Source: Escherichia coli (lineage in GTDB: Bacteria; Pseudomonadota; Gammaproteobacteria; Enterobacterales; Enterobacteriaceae). Taken from it: DNA of 64,000 nt. The DNA is taken from the NCBI RefSeq assembly GCF_045037415.1, contig NZ_CP173438.1; one strand, written 5' to 3'. Of this stretch, positions 1 through 44,506 are shown piece after piece (the stretch's first letter is position 1; each line of letters begins with the position of its first letter). The notes under the pieces are model-generated. The model had not been told where the DNA came from and searched no databases. It saw only the letters and a list, made by a program, of their open reading frames with translations. The position numbers were made by a program, and so were the translations under genes.

Positions 1-331
1 CAACCGTAAGAGCAATATCCTCGTTCTTCTGGTCGCGGCGTTTGATGTATTGCTGGTTTCTTTCCAGCTCATCCAGCAGCGCCAAGACGGTAGCCGGATT
101 GGCTGCAGCGATGAATTCAGCATTGGCCTGCTGTTCCATTTGGAAATCTTCATCGAAACCGCTTTCAGGATGCGCTCCTTCAATTCTGCAAATGGGAATA
201 TATCCAGCAGCCTCGCGATGAATTAGCGCATCATCACCATCAAATCGGCCCTCTCCATATTCGAGCGACCACTCACCACACGTTGCTTTCTCTGCCTTTT
301 CACGCAGTGCCTGATAGTCAATCTTGCTCAC
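1..331 (-). CDS. Ead/Ea22-like phage early protein, N-terminal part (gene continues beyond window start)
   Basis: Minus-strand ORF from GTG at 331 with GGAGG 7 nt upstream; translation VSKIDYQALREKAEKATCGEWSLEYGEG...NAEFIAAANPATVLALLDEL recalled as Ead/Ea22-like; no stop before window edge. Confidence 0.45.
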   Translation of the reverse strand, partial: MSKIDYQALREKAEKATCGEWSLEYGEGRFDGDDALIHREAAGYIPICRIEGAHPESGFDEDFQMEQQANAEFIAAANPATVLALLDELERNQQYIKRRDQKNEDIALTV

Positions 332-632
332 TGGTTGCCTCCTTTGCCGGGATTTCTAACTTTTGAGTGGTTGTATCAAATTCAAACAACTTAACCACGT
401 CATCAAACAGGACATAATCACCATCAGGATCTTCAGTCATATCTGCGCCACAATCCTGACCGCACGAGTCGCAACCATCCATATCAAGCTCGTATCGCTT
501 CAGGTTTGCGATATTTGATAAATTCAGCGCCAGTACAGCCAGGTCATAAACCTCTTCGGCAGTGACATCGCTGTTCAGTCCCATTTCATGGCGATATATG
601 ATTTTTTCTACTCGTTGTTTTGTGATCGTCAT
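318..632 (-). CDS. hypothetical phage protein with Cys-rich motif (CDSCGQDCG)
   Basis: ORF track 318..656; ATG at 632 (MTITKQR) preceded by GGAGTGAAG; TTG at 656 is a less likely start. Confidence 0.45.
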   Translation of the reverse strand: MTITKQRVEKIIYRHEMGLNSDVTAEEVYDLAVLALNLSNIANLKRYELDMDGCDSCGQDCGADMTEDPDGDYVLFDDVVKLFEFDTTTQKLEIPAKEATSEQD

Positions 633-903
633 TTTTCTCTTCACTCCGATATACAAGGATTACCACACCCCCTCTGCTGATTGCGCGAGCTGGATCCCCT
701 GGTTCCATGCCGTCAATTCCGAAGGCTTCGGAAAACGCATTCATTGCCTTCTGGCGTTCATCCTGCTTACGGCGTTTATTCCATTTTTTCAGGAACAACA
801 GCGACAGCCACCGTCCGCTGCAGAACACGATGTAAAAATAACCAAGGAGCGCCAGGCCGACATTCAGGGCCGTTTCTATGGTTAGTTGTGAGTCAGTTGC
901 CAT
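586..903 (-). CDS. hypothetical small membrane protein
   Basis: 105-aa ORF with one hydrophobic helix (LNVGLALLGYFYIVF) then basic tail; overlaps next gene by ~47 nt, so real extent uncertain. Confidence 0.3.
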   Translation of the reverse strand: MATDSQLTIETALNVGLALLGYFYIVFCSGRWLSLLFLKKWNKRRKQDERQKAMNAFSEAFGIDGMEPGDPARAISRGGVVILVYRSEEKNDDHKTTSRKNHISP

Positions 904-1141
904 TTCTTACCTGTTTAAGTAACTGGTTGAACATAACACTTAGGGGATTGCTGTATCCAAACGGCAGATTGTTTACGCAGTACAGAATCATTTTGTTTTT
1001 TTCTCCAGTTCGTACTATTAACCCATTCCACAATAACCGTGATAATTCATTACTGATAGAAGTTGCGCTTCTTCCAAGTGCGAGGGATATATCTTCTCTA
1101 CTGCAATCTGGATTTTCCTGGATATACTCGATAACGGTCAT
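893..1141 (-). CDS. hypothetical phage protein (possible winged-helix DNA binding)
   Basis: ORF track 893..1183; internal ATG at 1141 (MTVIEYIQENP) with AAGGGA upstream fits better than the overlapping 1183 start. Confidence 0.4.
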   Translation of the reverse strand: MTVIEYIQENPDCSREDISLALGRSATSISNELSRLLWNGLIVRTGEKNKMILYCVNNLPFGYSNPLSVMFNQLLKQVRNGN

Positions 1142-1151
1142 GTGGTCCCTT

Positions 1152-1733
1152 TTACTTAATATCTGTTTCGGATTGCATGCCATGAGTATTCATTTCGTTA
1201 ATAATTTCATCCAGAAGGATTTCAAGCCCTTCTCGACCCATATCTGAAAGAATGAAACCTTTATCAGGGGAAGTAGTGAGCATTTTCTGATAAAGAAACA
1301 GCGCTCTTCCCATTCCTTCAGCTTCGCCGTATTTTTGAATTAAATTCCATTCAATATACTGTTGTAAGGCAAATCGAATGGGGCCGGGATATATCGTCAT
1401 AAACCCATACATCCCGTTATATACCACGGCGTGTTCAGTTGTTCCGTGTTCATTCAGGATATCAATTGTGCCGTTCTTGTCTTCTTCTTCGTTGATGAAT
1501 GTCGTCACATACAACCATCGCCACTGAGCAACCTTCATCTCAACCGGAAGTTTACCCAGTAATCCTGCTTCGTCGGCTTGCGCCAGACACTGAAGGATAC
1601 GTAAACCTCGCACATTAGGAGTATCGAATTCTCCGGCATCCAGACGACGTATGGCGTCGTGATAATCAATCGTCATACTGCCAGTTCGTATACCATTGGC
1701 TGTTGCTTCAGCCTGGAATTCATCGTATTGCAT
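1152..1733 (-). CDS. hypothetical phage early protein (193 aa)
   Basis: Long ORF in co-directional early-left cluster; no family recognised. Confidence 0.5.
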   Translation of the reverse strand: MQYDEFQAEATANGIRTGSMTIDYHDAIRRLDAGEFDTPNVRGLRILQCLAQADEAGLLGKLPVEMKVAQWRWLYVTTFINEEEDKNGTIDILNEHGTTEHAVVYNGMYGFMTIYPGPIRFALQQYIEWNLIQKYGEAEGMGRALFLYQKMLTTSPDKGFILSDMGREGLEILLDEIINEMNTHGMQSETDIK

Positions 1734-1738
1734 GATAT

Positions 1739-1921
1739 TTATTCCTCATCTTCATCTGCTGGTGCAATAACGTCATATCCTGCCTTTTCTGCAATAAACA
1801 GGAATGTTGAAAGAGTTCCTACAAGTTCATCGTCATGAACATGGCGAATGAATATTACTTTCCCGTTTTTGATGGTCAGCAATACTCTGGTTTGTTCGTG
1901 TTCTGCTGTTTTCTGATGCAT
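1739..1921 (-). CDS. hypothetical small protein (60 aa)
   Basis: Short ORF packed 5 nt upstream of 1152..1733 on same strand. Confidence 0.35.
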   Translation of the reverse strand: MHQKTAEHEQTRVLLTIKNGKVIFIRHVHDDELVGTLSTFLFIAEKAGYDVIAPADEDEE

Positions 1922-2115
1922 TATTATCTCCCGTATGCTTTACGCAGAAATAAGCAGGCAATATGCATGTAATTTTCACCGTATTGTGCAATAAGGCAGG
2001 CGGTCTTGTGTGATGCCATATTCTTTATAAAAGTCACAATAAAGCCTCCTGTGGATTAAGGTTGTAACAATCCCCGGCGATAAAACCGCAATAAACGTTC
2101 AGGGCATATTTGTTG

Positions 2116-2481
2116 TTATTGCGCTAATTCTTTTTCGGCAGCAGCTTTTGTATACTCACATGCAAAATTCAGAATTTCGCTGCCGAGTGTTTTCGTTTCG
2201 TGATTACTGGACATATGTAATACCTGTGTTGCATGCAATAAATGATAAACATTTACCGCAAATGAATCAGGCTCCAGGCAAATGCCTTCGTAATTATCTT
2301 GCTGTGAGGTTGTTTCTGTCATTGCTCCTGAAGTGCATACGAGCCTGTTTTTGACAATTCTCTTTTCTCTAATCACTATATCGGCAACATCTATTGCCTT
2401 TACAACCTCCGGGAGAAGTTCCGGGTTTGTATAATCAAAGTCATCAACATGGAGAACAGTTATGTTTTCGAACTTTTTCAT
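2116..2481 (-). CDS. hypothetical phage early protein (121 aa)
   Basis: ORF in early-left operon; no family recognised. Confidence 0.45.
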   Translation of the reverse strand: MKKFENITVLHVDDFDYTNPELLPEVVKAIDVADIVIREKRIVKNRLVCTSGAMTETTSQQDNYEGICLEPDSFAVNVYHLLHATQVLHMSSNHETKTLGSEILNFACEYTKAAAEKELAQ

Positions 2482-2609
2482 GGTTTCCTCAGCTGACTTA
2501 TATGTTCTGCTATATAGCGAGTCTCAGAAGTGTTTTCATATTAAGACTGTTTCCGCAATGATTGATAAAAATGTTCGCATGTACCTTGAGGGGCGAAGCG
2601 GCGATTATG

Positions 2610-3113
2610 TCACCATTGGTATTGGTTCTTCCGTAGAAGAGCTTCGCGAGATAAGGGGCAAACTTGTTGAGATGCGTCATGGTGTTGCTGCTCCTCACTT
2701 TTTGGTTGCTCCGGAGGAGTAACCTCACCAGTTAACAGCCACATCGCATCGCAGCCAAGAATATTTGCCAGTGGGATAAGCATACTGATAGTTGGTTCAT
2801 ACTCTCCGCTCTCCCACTGGATGATAATTTCTTCATCGAGATCGAGCAGCCTGGCGAGTTCGGCGGTTGTTAAGCCGCAGGCTTCGCGTTGGGTGCGAAG
2901 ACGGTTGTTGATTGCAGAATTTTTGTTCTGTAAAAGCATTGCTGACGATAGCTTTCTGGATATGCTATTTGTCATATCCCATGCCAGTCCTGCGCATGAC
3001 TCTATATCGCTAGAGAGCGTAGCATCAGGTGTTGCTTTTGCTATTAGTGTAATGAGGCTGCCGAGGTTTTTCAGTTCTTCGAGACAGTCAAGAGTTGTAG
3101 CTTTATTGATCAT
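2610..3113 (-). CDS. HTH (XRE/Cro-C1-type) domain protein, first gene leftward of cI operator repeats
   Basis: 167-aa ORF; ATG at 3113 with GAGG 7 nt upstream; residues ~68-128 (LRTQREACGLTTAELARLLDLDEEIIIQWESGEYEPTISMLIPLANILGCD) look like a classic HTH_XRE fold. Confidence 0.55.
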   Translation of the reverse strand: MINKATTLDCLEELKNLGSLITLIAKATPDATLSSDIESCAGLAWDMTNSISRKLSSAMLLQNKNSAINNRLRTQREACGLTTAELARLLDLDEEIIIQWESGEYEPTISMLIPLANILGCDAMWLLTGEVTPPEQPKSEEQQHHDASQQVCPLSREALLRKNQYQW

Positions 3114-3139
3114 GAGATGATACCTCAGTTACGAACTTT

Positions 3140-3200
3140 GTTTTATGGTAACTAAGGTATCAAGGTGTGGCAAGTGATTTTTGATACTTTGGTTTCTTTT
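3140..3200. promoter_or_regulatory. candidate left operator/promoter (oL-like) repeats
   Basis: GATACTTTG half-site (3187-3195) and GGTATCAAGG (3151-3160) between cI stop and next leftward gene; same half-site recurs right of cI. Confidence 0.3.
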
Positions 3201-3216
3201 TGTGTTTTGTTTCTGG

Positions 3217-3873
3217 TCAGAAAATATCCCACCTGGCATCAACCACAACACCTACTATTTCGCAATCATTGTCCATTTCTATGATTGGATATTGTGGATT
3301 AAGGGGCTTTAGAAACGCCTTTCCCATGTCAGAAATATATTTTTTGAATGTTGCTTCATTGGTAGATTTTTTTCTGGCGATGACGTAACACCCTGAAAAA
3401 ACTTCTTTATCTGGGTTGACAAGGATCGACATTCCTTCAGGAAATGTTATTCCTACGGGCGAAGTCATTGAGTCTCCGTGCACTTCCAGCCAGAACCCCC
3501 TCTCACCAGCGTATTTTACAGAATGCCTCCAATTATCCTGATCATACATGTTGTAGTCATCACCAGAAGTTGCGAATAATCCTGCCTGAACCCAGTTAAT
3601 TACAGGGTAAGAGTGTGCTGTGTCTCTCTGTGGGCAGCTCTTAACATTATTTTCCCAATGCTTATCTTTTTCATCTCCGTTCTGAAGCCACTGCGGTGAA
3701 CACCGCAGTGCAGCTGCAACTTTAAAAAGGGTGTCACCGTTGAAACTTTTTGTAAGGCCTTGCTCGGCTTTACTGATTGCAACTCTGGTGATCCCAGCTT
3801 TTTTAGCCAACGCATCTTGTGTTAACCCAGCTTTTTGCCGTGCGTTGATGAGACGTTCACCTAAAGACTTCAT
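3217..3873 (-). CDS. cI: CI-type prophage repressor (HTH + LexA-like S24 autopeptidase domain)
   Basis: MKSLGERLINARQKAGLTQDALAKKAG HTH; Ala-Gly cleavage site (VQAGLF); GDSM serine and FKKY lysine; C-terminus FLKPLNPQYPII closely resembles lambda CI; GAGGAG RBS before ATG at 3873. Confidence 0.9.
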   Translation of the reverse strand: MKSLGERLINARQKAGLTQDALAKKAGITRVAISKAEQGLTKSFNGDTLFKVAAALRCSPQWLQNGDEKDKHWENNVKSCPQRDTAHSYPVINWVQAGLFATSGDDYNMYDQDNWRHSVKYAGERGFWLEVHGDSMTSPVGITFPEGMSILVNPDKEVFSGCYVIARKKSTNEATFKKYISDMGKAFLKPLNPQYPIIEMDNDCEIVGVVVDARWDIF

Positions 3874-3889
3874 TTTTCTTCTCCTCTCA

Positions 3890-3975
3890 TGGCTGTTGAT
3901 ACTAAAGTAACAGAATTTCTTGATACTTTGGATTCCTGTGGTTAACATCGTTGAATAACAAAGTATCTGGTGTGA
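3890..3975. promoter_or_regulatory. candidate right operator/promoter region (oR-like)
   Basis: Three copies of GATACT(A/T)(A/T)(A/T)G or its complement (3899-3907, 3923-3931, 3960-3968) in the divergent region between cI and the rightward genes. Confidence 0.35.
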
Positions 3976-3984
3976 GACTAAAGA

Positions 3985-4212
3985 ATGACCCTTTATGAAA
4001 TATTAAAAATTCAATTTAAAACCAATGCCGCTATTGGTCGCAGGTTCCCAAAGAAAGGAAGGCCTCGTGGCAGTCAAGGTGTTGGAAAGTGGAAAACGCG
4101 AGGTGTTCCGGAGGATGTTGCCATTCTTTGTCATCTGGATCCGAGCATTCCATATACACACCCAAGTCTAGCGAATACAGAAGATGACAAGCCCACAGGA
4201 GACCAACAATGA
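3985..4212 (+). CDS. small basic protein in the Cro position (not recognisably Cro)
   Basis: 75-aa ORF starting right after the operator repeats; very basic (GRRFPKKGRPRGSQGVGKWKTRG); no HTH recognised; stop overlaps next start. Confidence 0.3.
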   Translation: MTLYEILKIQFKTNAAIGRRFPKKGRPRGSQGVGKWKTRGVPEDVAILCHLDPSIPYTHPSLANTEDDKPTGDQQ

Positions 4213-4916
4213 ACACCGCAATTTTTAACGGCAAAGCATCCATGACCAGCGTTGAGATCGCAGAGCTGGTGGGAAGCCGACCAGATAGTGTTAAGAGAAC
4301 TATTGAAACACTGGCTAAAAAGGGAATCATCCAATTTCCACAGACTGTGGAAATTGAGAATAAACAATCACTTGGGCCTCGCCGATTTTCTAGCGCGTAT
4401 GTATTCGAAGGTGAACGAGGTAAGCGCGACAGCATCATTGTCGTCGCACAGCTCTGTCCTGAATTCACAGCTCGCCTGGTAGATCGCTGGCGCGAACTGG
4501 AAGAACAGATCCGTAAGCCAATGAGCGAAATCGAAATGGTTGCCGCGATGGCTCTTGAAGCCGTTCGCCAACAGAAACGGATCACTCAGGTGGAAGAAAA
4601 AGTCAGCCACGTTGCTGAAACAGTCGAGCAAATTAAAAAGGGCACTATTCGTGAGGGCTATGCCGGATATCGCCAACTGAAAGCAAAAACCGGTTTGTCA
4701 GATGATAAATGCCGCAATCTGGTGAACGCCTATCAAATTCCTACAGACACACATGAGTTCATGACGCCGGACGGATTGTTGTCACGTCGCGCAATTGTTG
4801 CTGTGGAACCGTTTATGGCTGCTTTTTATCGGGTTATGGAGGAAGCAGAACCGCGAGGGACTCGCTGGTATCACCCGAAAATGGGGTTATTTCAGGTTAT
4901 TGGTTGGCAGCGGTGA
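4209..4916 (+). CDS. phage regulatory protein, Rha-like N-terminal region
   Basis: 235-aa ORF; MTSVEIAELVGSRPDSVKRTIETLAKKG resembles the Rha-domain HTH pattern seen in the ORF at 5685. Confidence 0.45.
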   Translation: MNTAIFNGKASMTSVEIAELVGSRPDSVKRTIETLAKKGIIQFPQTVEIENKQSLGPRRFSSAYVFEGERGKRDSIIVVAQLCPEFTARLVDRWRELEEQIRKPMSEIEMVAAMALEAVRQQKRITQVEEKVSHVAETVEQIKKGTIREGYAGYRQLKAKTGLSDDKCRNLVNAYQIPTDTHEFMTPDGLLSRRAIVAVEPFMAAFYRVMEEAEPRGTRWYHPKMGLFQVIGWQR

Positions 4917-5024
4917 AAAAAAGCCGGGAGTAACCCGGCTCACTCAACATCAATAACGGGGAGCTGTTTCGCATAAAACGGCTCCGAAACATCCAAGAAC
5001 AGTTCTAAAGATATCAGCAGCTAT

Positions 5025-5688
5025 ATGATCATTTCAAGACCAAATATTGATTCTGCAATTTCGGGACGTTACACTGTCTCCGCACCTTATAAAGCGGGTG
5101 CCGGGATTGGCGTCCTGAAATTGTCAACGGCGATGTATGACGCGCCAGCGTCTTTTTTATCGTCCGCATTTGCTCACATCCAGATTATGGTGGGCTGGGC
5201 GGGGGCACCGAAAGGTGCGCCGGTTCTCCGTTGACGCCGGTTACGCCAACCCCGTCCAGTTCACCACCAGTGAAATTGGCGTTTCCGGTGGTGGAAGTTT
5301 TTCACTGTCAACGGAGGCTGCCATCATGGCTACTGTCCTAACTTCCCCATTCCTAAAAATCGAAGTCGTCAACGGCAAGGCCGTTATTTTCTCCCTGCAT
5401 GTTGCCTGCCATTTCAAGCGCATGCACCAGAACATCGTTGACAAAATCGAGTATCTGAACTGCTCACGCGAGTTTTTTACCCGCAATTTCATACCGGGTA
5501 CTTATCACATCTACGGTGACTCCCTGCGTGGTTATTACATCACCCTTGATGGTCTGATGATGCTTCAGCTTGGGTTAAGTCTGCGCACAATGCGGTACTA
5601 CGAGAGCTGTATTGAAGCATTCCATGAGGCTGAAACCGTCCAGGGTCACTCCGCGTTCCGTCGTAATCAACGGGAGGTGCACCTATGA
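5025..5688 (+). pseudogene. Rha-family paralog, copy A, frameshifted between N-terminal extension and Rha domain
   Basis: 5025..5234 and 5137..5688 are in different frames; together they parallel the single 283-aa ORF at 5685 (shared IDSAI.GRYT..APYKAGAG start, Rha-like VNGKAVIFSLHVACHFKRMHQNIVDKI body); net +1 indel ~5180-5235. Confidence 0.4.
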
Positions 5689-6536
5689 TCCGCCACCAGC
5701 ATATTGATTCTGCAATTCCGGGACGTTACACTGCTCAGGCACCTTATAAAGCGGGTGCCGGGCGTGGAAACCCGAAATTCAATATAGAGCACAACCGCGC
5801 TCATGCGGTTTTTTCGTGTCATGAGCATCGTTACACCCAAATTATGGTGGGGCGTGCAGGGCCAACTTCGGTTGGGCCGGGTTCTATGTTGACCGGTATT
5901 TCCACCCCTGTACGTCTCACCACCTATATGGTCGTGGAAAGCCTTGGTGGTGAGTTCATTGAATTCAACATAGGGGCTGTCACCATGACTACTCTCCCAA
6001 CCCAATCTCACCCTGAAATCACGATTATCAATGGTCGCGTTGTCACCACATCTCTTGCAGTAGCTAATTACTTTACTAAACGGCATGAGCGGGTTTTAGA
6101 TAGAATTAGAAACCTCGAATGTTCCGCTGAATTTACTGAACACAATTTTGTGTTAAGTGAATACACCGACGCATCAGGCCGCAAACTCCCTTGTTACCAA
6201 ATCACCCGCGACGGTTTTGCGTTTCTTGCCATGGGCTTCACTGGTAAACGTGCTGCCCAGTTCAAAGAGGCATACATCAACGCCTTTAACCTGATGGAGA
6301 AGAGTTTATCAGGTGCCGATGCGTCTGATATGTCAGCTGTCGCACGAAACGCCAGAGGCGTATACCTGCATTTGCGTGAAATCCATCAAATCTGGACAAG
6401 CCAGCTTTATCCAATGCTTAAGGCCGTTGAATCTCCGCTGGCTAGCAAACTGTACGACCGTGTTGGTGATGCTGTTTTTGGCGCTGCACTTGTTGATTCC
6501 AGGCTGAATGGTTCTGACAAGGAGGTTCGCCCATGA
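5685..6536 (+). CDS. phage regulatory protein Rha (copy B)
   Basis: INGRVVTTSLAVANYFTKRHERVLDRIRNLECSAEF...YQITRDGFAFLAMGFTGKRAAQFKEAYINAFNLME matches the Rha-domain pattern; GGAGGTG RBS before ATG; the ~100-aa N-terminal extension may not be coding. Confidence 0.65.
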   Translation: MIRHQHIDSAIPGRYTAQAPYKAGAGRGNPKFNIEHNRAHAVFSCHEHRYTQIMVGRAGPTSVGPGSMLTGISTPVRLTTYMVVESLGGEFIEFNIGAVTMTTLPTQSHPEITIINGRVVTTSLAVANYFTKRHERVLDRIRNLECSAEFTEHNFVLSEYTDASGRKLPCYQITRDGFAFLAMGFTGKRAAQFKEAYINAFNLMEKSLSGADASDMSAVARNARGVYLHLREIHQIWTSQLYPMLKAVESPLASKLYDRVGDAVFGAALVDSRLNGSDKEVRP

Positions 6537-6948: not shown

Positions 6949-7244
6949 ACTGTTTTCAGTTTGTGTGCGGATGTGCTTTCGATAACCCGATTCAGCGCCT
7001 AATTATGTTGCGTGTTTTGATGTCGGGTTCTTCAGACGGTGAAGGCGAGAGAGTTATTGATCATCAGGTGCTTGCTGATTTCTGCTGTTGTTCTAAGCAA
7101 GCGATATTCAGGGAAACCCTGGCACTGGAAAGAGCTGGTTATCTTCATATCCGAAAAATTGCAACGCTTACTATTGATGCAAAAGCCAGACTACAACCTG
7201 CGCGTGGCTACACAATTCTCATGCCGCGGAAGGAGGTTGTATGA
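6945..7244 (+). CDS. hypothetical protein (99 aa), possible DNA-binding
   Basis: Translationally coupled ORF directly upstream of replication gene. Confidence 0.4.
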   Translation: MNCFQFVCGCAFDNPIQRLIMLRVLMSGSSDGEGERVIDHQVLADFCCCSKQAIFRETLALERAGYLHIRKIATLTIDAKARLQPARGYTILMPRKEVV

Positions 7245-8227
7245 GCCGTTACGCCCCCACACCGGAAGTTATGGCTATTGGTCAAATTAATATTTCCGGC
7301 AATGTTACACCTGCGAACTGGTGGAAATATATTCGACTACCCAGTGGGCGTCCGGATGCGACGGCTATCGCTCTGCTTTCAGAGATCGTTTACTGGTACC
7401 GCCCGACAGAGGTCAGGGATGAGCACACCGGAGCGTTGCTGGGATATCGCAAGCGTTTTCAGGGCGACAAACTGCAAAGAAGCTACCAGGCGTTTGCTGA
7501 GCAGTTTGGTTTCGGGAAAAGGGAAACCGCAGATGCGCTGAAGCGTCTGCGCGATGCAGGGTTTATTACTCTGGATTTACGCACGGTGGAAATGCTCGAT
7601 GGGGTGAAATGCAGCAATATTTTGTTTGTCGGGATCAACCCACAGGCAATTGCGGCCATCACCACACCTTCTTCTGTTTCGCCAGAAAGTAACAGCAATA
7701 ATGCAATCAGCGATACAGCTATTACGTTAAAACGGAACACCCCCCGACGTCATAACGGAACAGGGGATACGCCGAATGTTGATACAAATACAGAGATTAC
7801 TACAGAGATTACAACGGAGACTAAAAACACTATTGATGCATCCGCTGACGCGTCTGCGCGTTCTGCCCGACAGGAATATTCACCGGAATTTGAACAGGCC
7901 TGGCAGGAATATCCCAAACGTGCTGGTGGCAATTCCAAGTCAGCAGCCTTCAAAGCCTGGAAAGCCCGTATCAGGGAGGGAATAAAACCGGAGACCATGC
8001 TTGATGGCGTGAAGCGGTATGCCGCCTGGGTACGTGCTACAGGAAATACCGGCACACAGTTCGTGAAGCAGGCTGCGACGTTCTTTGGACCCGATCGTCA
8101 CTTCGAAGATTACTGGCAACAGCCAGCCGCTCACGGAGGTGGGCGACAGCGACAGGTCGATGTCCTGGCTGGCCTGGGAGCCATGTCTGACAAATTCGGT
8201 AAATCCAGTAACAAATTGACATTCTGA
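7241..8227 (+). CDS. phage replication initiation protein (O-like; conserved phage replication C-terminal domain)
   Basis: Position before DnaC-like gene; C-terminal EYSPEFEQAWQEYPKRAGGNSKSAAFKAWKARI...GTQFVKQAATFF recalled as a conserved phage replication-protein C-terminus; short direct repeats in mid-gene. Confidence 0.6.
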   Translation: MSRYAPTPEVMAIGQINISGNVTPANWWKYIRLPSGRPDATAIALLSEIVYWYRPTEVRDEHTGALLGYRKRFQGDKLQRSYQAFAEQFGFGKRETADALKRLRDAGFITLDLRTVEMLDGVKCSNILFVGINPQAIAAITTPSSVSPESNSNNAISDTAITLKRNTPRRHNGTGDTPNVDTNTEITTEITTETKNTIDASADASARSARQEYSPEFEQAWQEYPKRAGGNSKSAAFKAWKARIREGIKPETMLDGVKRYAAWVRATGNTGTQFVKQAATFFGPDRHFEDYWQQPAAHGGGRQRQVDVLAGLGAMSDKFGKSSNKLTF

Positions 8228-35353: not shown

Positions 35354-35696
35354 AAAGAATAAAAAAATCCCGCAGTGATCGCGGACAGGAACTGCGGGAG
35401 AGTTACGAAGATTAAGTGTAAGGAATTATTCTTATATCACGACAAAAAAATTAACGCAGAGAAATTATACGCGCCACAGTCAGTTTGTGAAAATGTGAAG
35501 ATATTCAGAATTTTTATGCCATTACCGGTTTTAACCAACAGGATTATCGGTGGGCATGAAAGAAAACCCCGGTATCTGCTGATACCGGGGTTTCTCTTTA
35601 GCATGGCAGAAATGTGTTTCATGCTTTTCGGGCGAAGGATATCCGACTTCTGTACGGAATGGCAAGTGGCGGTTAATTTATTCAGGGGAAGGCTGT

Positions 35697-43915: not shown

Positions 43916-44506
43916 GTGAACATGGATTTCAGAATGAGTGAACAACCACGGACCATAACAATTTATAATCTGCTGGCCGGAACTAATGAATTTATTGGTG
44001 AAGGTGACGCATACATTCCGCCTCATACAGGTCTGCCAGCAAACAGTACCGATATTGCACCGCCAGATATTCCGGCTGGTTTCGTGGCTGTTTTCAACAG
44101 TGATGAGTCATCGTGGCATCTCGTTGAAGATCATCGGGGTAAAACGGTTTATGACGTGGCTTCCGGCGACGCGTTATTTATTTCTGAACTCGGCTCATTA
44201 CCGGAAAATGTCACCTGGTTATCCCCGGAAGGGGAGTTTCAGAAGTGGAACGGCACAGCCTGGGTGAAGGATACGGAAGCAGAAAAACTGTTCCGGATCC
44301 GGGAGGCGGAAGAAACAAAAAACAGCCTGATGCAGGTAGCCAGTGAGCATATAGCGCCGCTTCAGGATGCTGTGGATCTGGAGATCGCAACGGAGAAAGA
44401 AACCTTGTTGCTGGAAGCCTGGAAAAAGTATCGGGTGTTGCTGAACCGTGTTGATACATCAACTGCACCTGATATTGAGTGGCCTGCGGTCCCTGTTATG
44501 GAGTAA
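43916..44506 (+). CDS. tfa: tail fibre assembly chaperone Tfa
   Basis: 196 aa; Tfa-like N-terminal [30 protein letters not shown] and conserved C-terminus. Confidence 0.85.

Follow-up and report, generated by a model that had tools for sequence, protein, structure and literature searches.

A probable phiP27-like immunity module in an Escherichia coli prophage, with a candidate all-alpha Cro, tandem isrK/C4 modules and no recognisable N, nut or CII

We analysed a stretch of 64,000 nucleotides (nt) of the Escherichia coli contig NZ_CP173438.1 (assembly GCF_045037415.1), referred to here as the window, with the focus on positions 2610-4916, which hold a CI-type repressor gene and its neighbours. 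We found that this locus is probably the module for immunity and early control in a lambdoid prophage of the phiP27 kind. The switch appears to work like the CI-Cro switch of lambda and P22, but it is not of the lambda type with respect to N, nut, CII and pRE. Its first rightward gene, ORF75, very probably encodes a diverged all-alpha Cro of the P22/N15-type superfamily, as judged by fold and context and not by a Pfam threshold. The evidence lies in the identity of the genes, the folds of their products, the enrichment and conservation of motifs, synteny, and matches to RNA families together with the complementarities seen in these RNAs. The four open reading frames (ORFs) of the locus lie at the coordinates given in an earlier interpretation made from the letters alone (the sequence-only reading), and they are collected with the other features in Table 1.

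Table 1. Positions of genes, candidate operators, predicted promoters and RNA modules in the window
Feature	Position	Strand	Description
ORF167	2610-3113	-	First pL-operon gene; acidic XRE-fold protein; N-terminal helical hairpin and one 434/P22-C2-type helix-turn-helix (modelled)
Candidate oL site GATACCTCAGTTAC	3119-3132	+	3' of predicted pL start; overlaps ORF167 ribosome-binding site
Predicted pL	3145-3173	-	TTGCCA-17-TACCAT; consensus scan, prediction only
Candidate oL site GATACCTTAGTTAC	3148-3161	-	Between -35 and -10 of predicted pL
Candidate oL site GATACTTTGGTTTC	3183-3196	+	Upstream of pL -35
cI	3217-3873	-	218 amino acids; HTH_3 (5.8e-14) and Peptidase_S24 (4.7e-22)
Candidate oR site GATACTAAAGTAAC	3898-3911	+	Closest to cI; overlaps inferred pRM -10
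Putative pRM -10, TAGTAT	3904-3899	-	Our reading of the sequence
Predicted pR	3920-3948	+	TTGATA-17-TAACAT; consensus scan
Candidate oR site GATACTTTGGATTC	3922-3935	+	Overlaps pR -35 and spacer
Candidate oR site GATACTTTGTTATT	3954-3967	-	Second half degenerate; about +1 of pR
ORF75	3985-4212	+	Very probable diverged all-alpha Cro-family protein; 5-residue basic insertion (KKGRP) in the helix-turn-helix turn
Roi/Ant-like gene	4209-4916	+	phrog_63 at 3e-46; weak Phage_pRha N-terminus (1.2e-4); start overlaps cro stop
Intrinsic terminator	4921-4941	-	Leftward; possible end of an oop-like small RNA begun near 5001
Module 1	5047-5688	+	Promoter TTGATT-17-TACACT 5047-5075; isrK 5082-5158; C4 5183-5271; Rha-type ORF 5326-5688
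Module 2	5704-6536	+	Promoter 5704-5732; isrK 5739-5815; C4 5840-5927; Rha-type ORF 5985-6536
Q-family late antiterminator	10788-11156	+	phrog_79 at 4.9e-49; 'antiterminator Q family protein' in the Prokaryotic Genome Annotation Pipeline (PGAP)

The segment 2400-5100 was 93.5% identical to the early region of phiP27, a phage carrying the Shiga toxin (Stx) type Stx2e, with 88% of its length covered, and Stx1a and Stx2a phages such as Stx1_14040 matched it at 84-86% identity. In phiP27 the genes run L10 (helix-turn-helix (HTH) protein), L11 (repressor), L12 (hypothetical, 75 amino acids) and L14 (Ant). More broadly, phiP27 (NC_003356) and the Eru7-type Stx phages (Stx1_14040, LC567819; Stx2_14040, LC567818) share with the window, at 84-94% DNA identity, the order HTH protein, S24 repressor, 75-residue ORF, Roi/Ant, Rha/Ant genes, replication genes and Q, and their operator 14-mers are equal to those described below. 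There are differences too: phiP27 has an extra leftward gene between the 75-residue Cro-like gene and roi (L13, a 223-residue hypothetical protein, 7104-7775, minus strand), which is not in the window, and the left gene of the phiP27/Stx relatives is variable at its N- and C-terminal ends, with annotated lengths of 139 to 216 residues. In databases the 75-residue ORF is called hypothetical and nothing more.

The 1.6-kb core of the locus (2600-4220) had matches in 320 of 5426 complete E. coli genomes (about 6%), with query coverage of at least 80% in 194 of the 320; many of the matches were 100% identical. RefSeq names across the core were 'helix-turn-helix domain-containing protein', 'LexA family protein', 'hypothetical protein' and 'Rha family transcriptional regulator'. 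The chromosome of E. coli strain THO-003 was base-for-base the same as positions 1-5224 of the window. In that strain the prophage adjoins a DUF72 gene beside yecN and carries its integrase and excisionase at the far left end.

The repressor gene was assigned by its HTH_3 and S24 domains, and PGAP calls its product a 'LexA family protein'. The claim of the sequence-only reading that it closely resembles lambda CI was right as to HTH_3/S24 repressor homology but overstated, given 35% identity to lambda CI (3e-42) against 44% to P22 C2 (7e-64). Aligned with lambda CI, the protein keeps the Ala97-Gly98 cleavage site (VQAGLF), Ser135 (GDSM) and Lys177 (FKK). Since all three of these motifs are retained, we read this CI, from its sequence, as a lambda-type SOS-cleavable S24 repressor.

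ORF75 had been described as a very basic protein of 75 residues with no evident HTH, in a region where Cro was unrecognisable. The basic character was confirmed (pI 9.5); the other two statements were overturned, the one on Cro by the criterion that the sequence-only reading had itself set, because structure and synteny, together with a profile-profile similarity that depended on the alignment used, assign ORF75 to the all-alpha Cro superfamily. It had no match in Pfam, NCBIfam or PADLOC, it fell short of the Pfam family threshold for P22_Cro (PF14549), and its PHROG, phrog_4749, is listed as of unknown function. The 42 close homologues, from Escherichia, Klebsiella, Yersinia, Salmonella, Providencia, Photorhabdus and others, were all unnamed; their alignment showed the invariant motif NxxIG...P-x7-Q-x-VGKW-x3-GVPEDVAILCH. 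The AF2 (AlphaFold 2) model of ORF75 (pLDDT 87.8) had a five-helix HTH fold that could be superposed on solved Cro structures, and true Cro proteins were the best structural matches.

An exhaustive search of 1.8 billion representative proteins added the distant homologues P0047-P0049 (E 1e-7 to 2e-4), which are five residues shorter and have a textbook HTH (TAIGTVFGV-SRQSASLW). As these proteins lack the five residues within a canonical HTH, residues 23-27 of ORF75, KKGRP, can be placed in the turn of its own HTH, where the insertion (FP-KKGRP-RGSQ) is modelled as an ordered hairpin-like loop. The insertion breaks the usual HTH turn, and this is why no HTH had been evident. Judged by eye, the KKGRPRG stretch also resembles an AT-hook core. 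Profile-profile comparison by hhalign of the close-family alignment (A1) with P22 Cro was weak (3% probability) and rose, to 66% with an E-value of 5.5e-5 and in the HTH register, only after the distant insertion-free homologues had been added (extended alignment A2). One A2 member matched Pfam P22_Cro at 5.6e-4, and one had a weak YdaS score (0.022).

The comparison set of all-alpha Cro proteins comprised P22 Cro (1rzs), N15 Cro (2hin) and Xfaso-1 Cro (3bd1), together with Pfam P22_Cro and the related YdaS family. ORF75 is like the three solved proteins in its size, its five-helix HTH fold and its position as first pR gene divergent from an S24 repressor, and it also shares with all-alpha Cro proteins a W that comes after the recognition helix and precedes a 'VP/IPE' segment. 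It is unlike them in its low identity (about 10-15%), its lack of a Pfam match and its basic insertion. ORF75 is unrelated to lambda Cro, which has a beta-containing fold: hhalign of the family against lambda Cro gave 0.1% probability, and tblastn with lambda Cro found no match in the window. When the profile of the ORF75 family and the distant homologue P0047 were searched against PDB sequences, the outcome was a chance Nup358 match or nothing, and Foldseek against viral models gave no significant match.

In the window, phiP27, the Stx phages, Klebsiella prophages and the contigs of P0049, the gene of the ORF75 family is the first of the pR operon and diverges from the repressor gene over an operator-bearing spacer; in the Klebsiella prophages and on the P0049 contigs it lies about 105-120 bp from an HTH_3 and S24 repressor gene. 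A protein that is Cro-like in fold need not be the Cro of its switch, and ORF75 could instead be a YdaS-like small regulator, part of a toxin module or a factor that binds protein. In that case the translationally coupled Roi/Rha-type protein or ORF167 would serve as the lytic repressor. The absence of a direct family match, the unusual insertion in the HTH turn and the weak YdaS score of one homologue (0.022) would fit such a protein, as would the DNA-binding Roi/Rha-like gene directly 3' of ORF75. We nevertheless regard it as quite improbable, since the divergent position beside S24 repressors is kept across genera and in the distant insertion-free branch, the Klebsiella relatives exchange the next gene while retaining the ORF75 homologue, true Cro proteins are the best structural matches, and ORF75 is basic with an invariant SQxVGKW recognition-helix motif. 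Less credible still is the view of the sequence-only reading that the phage has no Cro at all and that its switch operates without a Cro-type lytic repressor. The silence of standard profile libraries on ORF75 agrees with that view, which the structural and synteny evidence already contradicts.

The 9-mer GATACTTTG was present three times in the 64 kb (3183, plus; 3922, plus; 3967, minus), each time inside one of the two spacers flanking cI. The 14-mer GATACNNNNGWWWC (GATAC-N4-GWWWC) had six matches in the window where 0.69 were expected, a number reached in none of 100 shuffles. Five of the six exact matches were in the same spacers (3119, 3148 on the minus strand, 3183, 3898 and 3922), while the sixth, at 35581, was isolated and was taken as chance. 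When the degenerate copy at 3954-3967 is included, there are three candidate operators on either side of cI. The half-sites seen earlier on both sides of the gene thus resolved into six 14-bp sites, three per side. The Stx1_14040 site aligned with the degenerate copy is more symmetric (GATACTTAAGTGTC). Both oL and oR sites are kept in phiP27 and Stx1_14040 while the surrounding sequence drifts, and operator sites of a like kind occur in Klebsiella prophages whose ORF75 homologue is 72% identical. The predicted pL and pR are overlapped by operator sites.

This arrangement has much in common with the immunity regions of lambda and P22, namely an S24 autocleavable repressor, three operators per side, divergent promoters that overlap the operators, and a rightward operon that begins with cro. 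The operators differ from those of lambda and P22 in being 14 bp long and in their make-up, the GATAC half being conserved and the other half degenerate. The region also differs in having no rexAB, N, nut, cII, cIII or pRE, a pL leader of about 25 nt, and a cro translationally coupled to the Roi/Ant gene.

Several searches addressed the absence of lambda-type early regulators. With lambda N, P22 gp24, lambda CII, P22 C1 and both Cro proteins as queries, tblastn returned nothing below E 0.3 across the window. No N-family PHROG was found among the left-arm proteins in the window, nor among those encoded farther out in the identical THO-003 prophage, as far as its integrase, so that the N homologue upstream of the window that would have spoken against the sequence-only reading did not appear. 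Words resembling boxA were not enriched (18 found, 22 expected) and none was in the right place. Nut sites would also lack room: stop and start codons overlap in the ATGA (4209-4212) that joins ORF75 to the next gene, and the leader of pL measures only some 25 nt. A scan of all frames for arginine-rich segments was too noisy to use, except that it gave no match in the left arm. By eye, the leftward strand around cro showed no CII-type TTGC-N6-TTGC box; the one sequence found, TTGCCATTCTTTGT at about 4120, is on the plus strand and was judged to be chance. The position of cII is occupied by the Roi/Ant gene and the antisense-controlled Rha genes. The absence of recognisable N, cII and boxA/boxB-like nut sites, and with it the proposal that early antitermination and lysis-lysogeny wiring differ from those of lambda, was therefore upheld.

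Such an absence is not new. It is documented for Stx phages of the non-lambda type (PMC8044961, PMC8951638, PMC8136144), and the phiP27 layout is equal. Eru1 Stx phages have lost N, CII and CIII (PMC8044961), and Eru6, Eru7 and Eru9 phages have Rha-family genes beside cI, with Eru7 represented by Stx2_14040 (PMC8951638), which is from the Stx-phage series of the relatives found here. The diversity of Stx phage regulatory regions has been surveyed (PMC8136144).

In the position of N, the first leftward gene had been seen as a 167-residue HTH_XRE protein and not an N-like antiterminator, and this was borne out. The HTH_3 domain of ORF167 covers residues 72-126. In the model, a helical hairpin at the N-terminus is followed by a domain nearest to the DNA-binding domains of P22 C2 and 434 repressor. 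The protein has a pI of 4.7, and its HTH domain carries a net charge of -7, compared with +5 for the N-terminal domain of CI; its recognition helix reads DEEIIIQWESG. Because the HTH domain is so strongly acidic, ORF167 seems likelier to bind protein than operators. We rejected its assignment as N on the basis of the ordered fold, the acidic charge and the lack of an arginine-rich motif, and its assignment as CII on the basis of hhalign against lambda CII (5% probability), despite a match to phrog_4836 ('CII-like regulator') at 1.2e-39. Its PADLOC matches (RmrA, CapH) were taken as generic HTH matches.

ORF167 could still substitute in function for a missing lambda regulator, whether as a second repressor or Cro-like factor for pL, as a CII-like lysogeny activator, or as an antirepressor whose XRE-fold domain would contact CI. 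Its place as first pL gene, the phrog_4836 match and the nearness of its HTH domain to those of P22 C2 and 434 repressor are consistent with such a role, and the charge of -7 and the helix sequence suit a partner that is protein and not DNA. HTH antirepressors do exist, for example MOR of TP901-1 (PDB 6tri), and the 'clade VIII CI' of Stx phages (PMC8951638) and most ORF167 relatives carry two HTH domains and no S24 domain. The lack of specific likeness to lambda CII and the ordered fold, unlike N, argue the other way, and ORF167 is missing from the Klebsiella relatives, so it is no conserved partner of this cI/cro pair. On balance we treat a substitute role as possible but doubtful. The ORF167 family (homologues P0050-P0169) is very common in E. 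coli prophages, one 230-residue member being present on more than 1000 contigs. Its members usually have two HTH_3 domains, which are acidic, and variable ends, and the family may match the 'clade VIII CI' (two HTH, no S24) of Stx phages (PMC8951638).

Rha-like regulators in place of cII had also been proposed, and the gene that follows ORF75 indeed proved to be Roi/Ant/Rha-like; its homologue in PhiR49_2 is annotated Roi. Beyond it we found two tandem modules in which an isrK RNA and a C4 RNA precede a Rha-type ORF. The Rfam matches exceeded the gathering scores for both isrK (62.2 and 61.6 bits; gathering score 50) and C4 (77.7 and 82.4 bits; gathering score 45). Each module has a conserved promoter-like TTGATT-17-TACACT just 5' of isrK, and in each an intrinsic terminator closes isrK. 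The Rha-type ORFs belong to Rha/anti-repressor PHROGs and to TIGR02681 (phage_pRha), the latter with 100 bits for module 2.

In each module, two segments of C4 that are unpaired in the predicted fold have complements both within isrK and in the Rha ORF leader. RNAduplex energies for C4 and its targets hardly surpassed shuffled controls (z -1.2 to -2.4), and they carry no information for RNAs so long and GC-rich; exact loop-target matching was used in their place. The module 1 loops ACGCCAA and CTCCGTTGA were complementary to positions 5107/5124 and 5276/5308. For the module 2 loops TTTCCA and CTATGTTGA, targets were found at 5765 and 5935/5965, and a second upstream target, TCAATATAG near 5779, was identified by eye and includes one G-U pair. 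The complements were exact over 6-9 nt, with no exact cross-matches between the modules, and the second leader target of each module covers the Shine-Dalgarno sequence of its Rha-type ORF. Differing loops with matching targets suggest two heterospecific controls of the P1 immI type, placed in series.

The same design is known from immI of P1 and P7 (c4 - icd - ant) and from isrK-orf45-anrP of Gifsy-1 (PMC4825925). These systems and the window modules have in common a terminator after isrK and C4 loops whose complements lie upstream (a1, b1) and downstream (a2, b2), with b2 covering the ribosome-binding site of a Rha/antirepressor-type gene. In Gifsy-1, IsrK opens translation of an antirepressor-like protein, which leads to antQ expression and prophage induction (PMC4825925). 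Unlike P1 and Gifsy-1, the window has two modules in tandem with different loop and target sequences. Within the early right operon they follow roi and precede the replication genes, whereas the Gifsy-1 module is downstream of antQ.

Annotation of this region deserves comment. The long ORFs called by PGAP, 'ash family protein' (5025-5688) and 'Rha family phage regulatory protein' (5685-6536), cross the isrK and C4 genes; their THO-003 counterparts are at 14426-15088 and 15085-15936. In the profiles of phrog_821 and phrog_995, it is the translated isrK/C4 regions that match the first 100-143 positions. The true starts of the Rha-type proteins are probably at 5326 and 5985. The sole difference from THO-003 over positions 1-5345 is a single-T indel at 5224, within the module 1 C4 RNA (GGTTCTCC against GGTCTCC), which also changes the frame of the overlapping annotated ORF.

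From the end of module 2 (6536) to the Q-family gene (10788), which is downstream of the replication genes, the genes overlap and we found no convincing plus-strand terminator. Between pR and Q, then, no intrinsic stops are obvious other than the isrK terminators (5139-5158 and 5793-5815), which may gate early transcription. Just 3' of the roi-like gene, a possible oop-like leftward RNA (4921-5037, minus strand) of about 85 nt with two hairpins was noted. It has a promoter-like TTGAAA-18-TATCTT with an upstream TG (5037-5008) and a strong terminator (4941-4921). Its folding z-score was -2.7 and it had no Rfam match; the region is identical in PhiR49_2 and different in phiP27.

Taken together, these data are consistent with the following scheme, in which we infer which proteins bind the operators, that the promoters are active, and what the Rha-type proteins and ORF167 do. 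CI would hold the divergent pL and pR shut through the three 14-bp GATAC-N4-GWWWC operators on each side. In lytic growth ORF75, acting as Cro, would bind the operators of CI and shut down cI and early transcription. The early operons are compact, with overlapping genes and no strong intrinsic terminators except those of the isrK/C4 modules. By analogy with Gifsy-1, each module, sited where cII would be, may control translation of its Rha-type antirepressor-like gene, and the late genes would depend on the Q-family antiterminator. Some observations weigh against this scheme. The insertion in the HTH turn could alter or abolish operator binding by ORF75, the third oR site is degenerate, and pRM was not reported by the consensus promoter scan. 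Rfam reported no put-type or nut RNA either, which is weak evidence as Rfam may hold no such models.

A bolder version of this scheme can be drawn, which as a whole we consider unlikely. In it, N/nut and CII would be functionally replaced by the two heterospecific isrK/C4 modules together with a protein-binding ORF167, and Cro would have an AT-hook-like loop. The isrK terminators and antisense loops would gate both pR transcription into the replication genes and Q and translation of the Rha genes, ORF167 would bind a protein such as CI or RNA polymerase and not DNA, and Cro would read its operators with the basic loop (KKGRPRG) in its HTH turn.

Other features of the window were recorded in passing. 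A MarR/winged-helix-like ORF of 96 residues (893-1183, minus strand; phrog_1687 at 1.3e-24) overlaps the end of ORF 1152-1733; it is unannotated by PGAP in the identical THO-003 prophage, and the Stx1_14040 record has a MarR family regulator. Just after Q and a cytosine methyltransferase gene, the minus strand (12229-14078) encodes a HEPN-like nuclease (MAE_28990 family) and a DUF262 protein, as named by PGAP, a pair that resembles a defence-type insertion into the prophage. At 44265-44463 (plus strand), a long way from the immunity region, there is a full-length match to the Rfam IS009 RNA (218 bits).

The new points are modest: a Cro assignment for an unnamed family, the insertion in its HTH turn, an explicit operator motif, and the differing specificity of the antisense modules. 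For annotation, phrog_4749, which occurs in prophages across Enterobacterales and is called hypothetical or unknown in NCBI/UniRef names, PGAP and PHROGs, can be called a Cro-family protein. The HTH-turn insertion and the tandem antisense modules of differing specificity are of some mechanistic interest. Operators can now be written down for an immunity type that about 6% of complete E. coli genomes (320/5426) carry and that also occurs in Stx1, Stx2 and Stx2e phages, which aids reasoning on induction, and hence on toxin release, in Stx phages that are not lambda-like.

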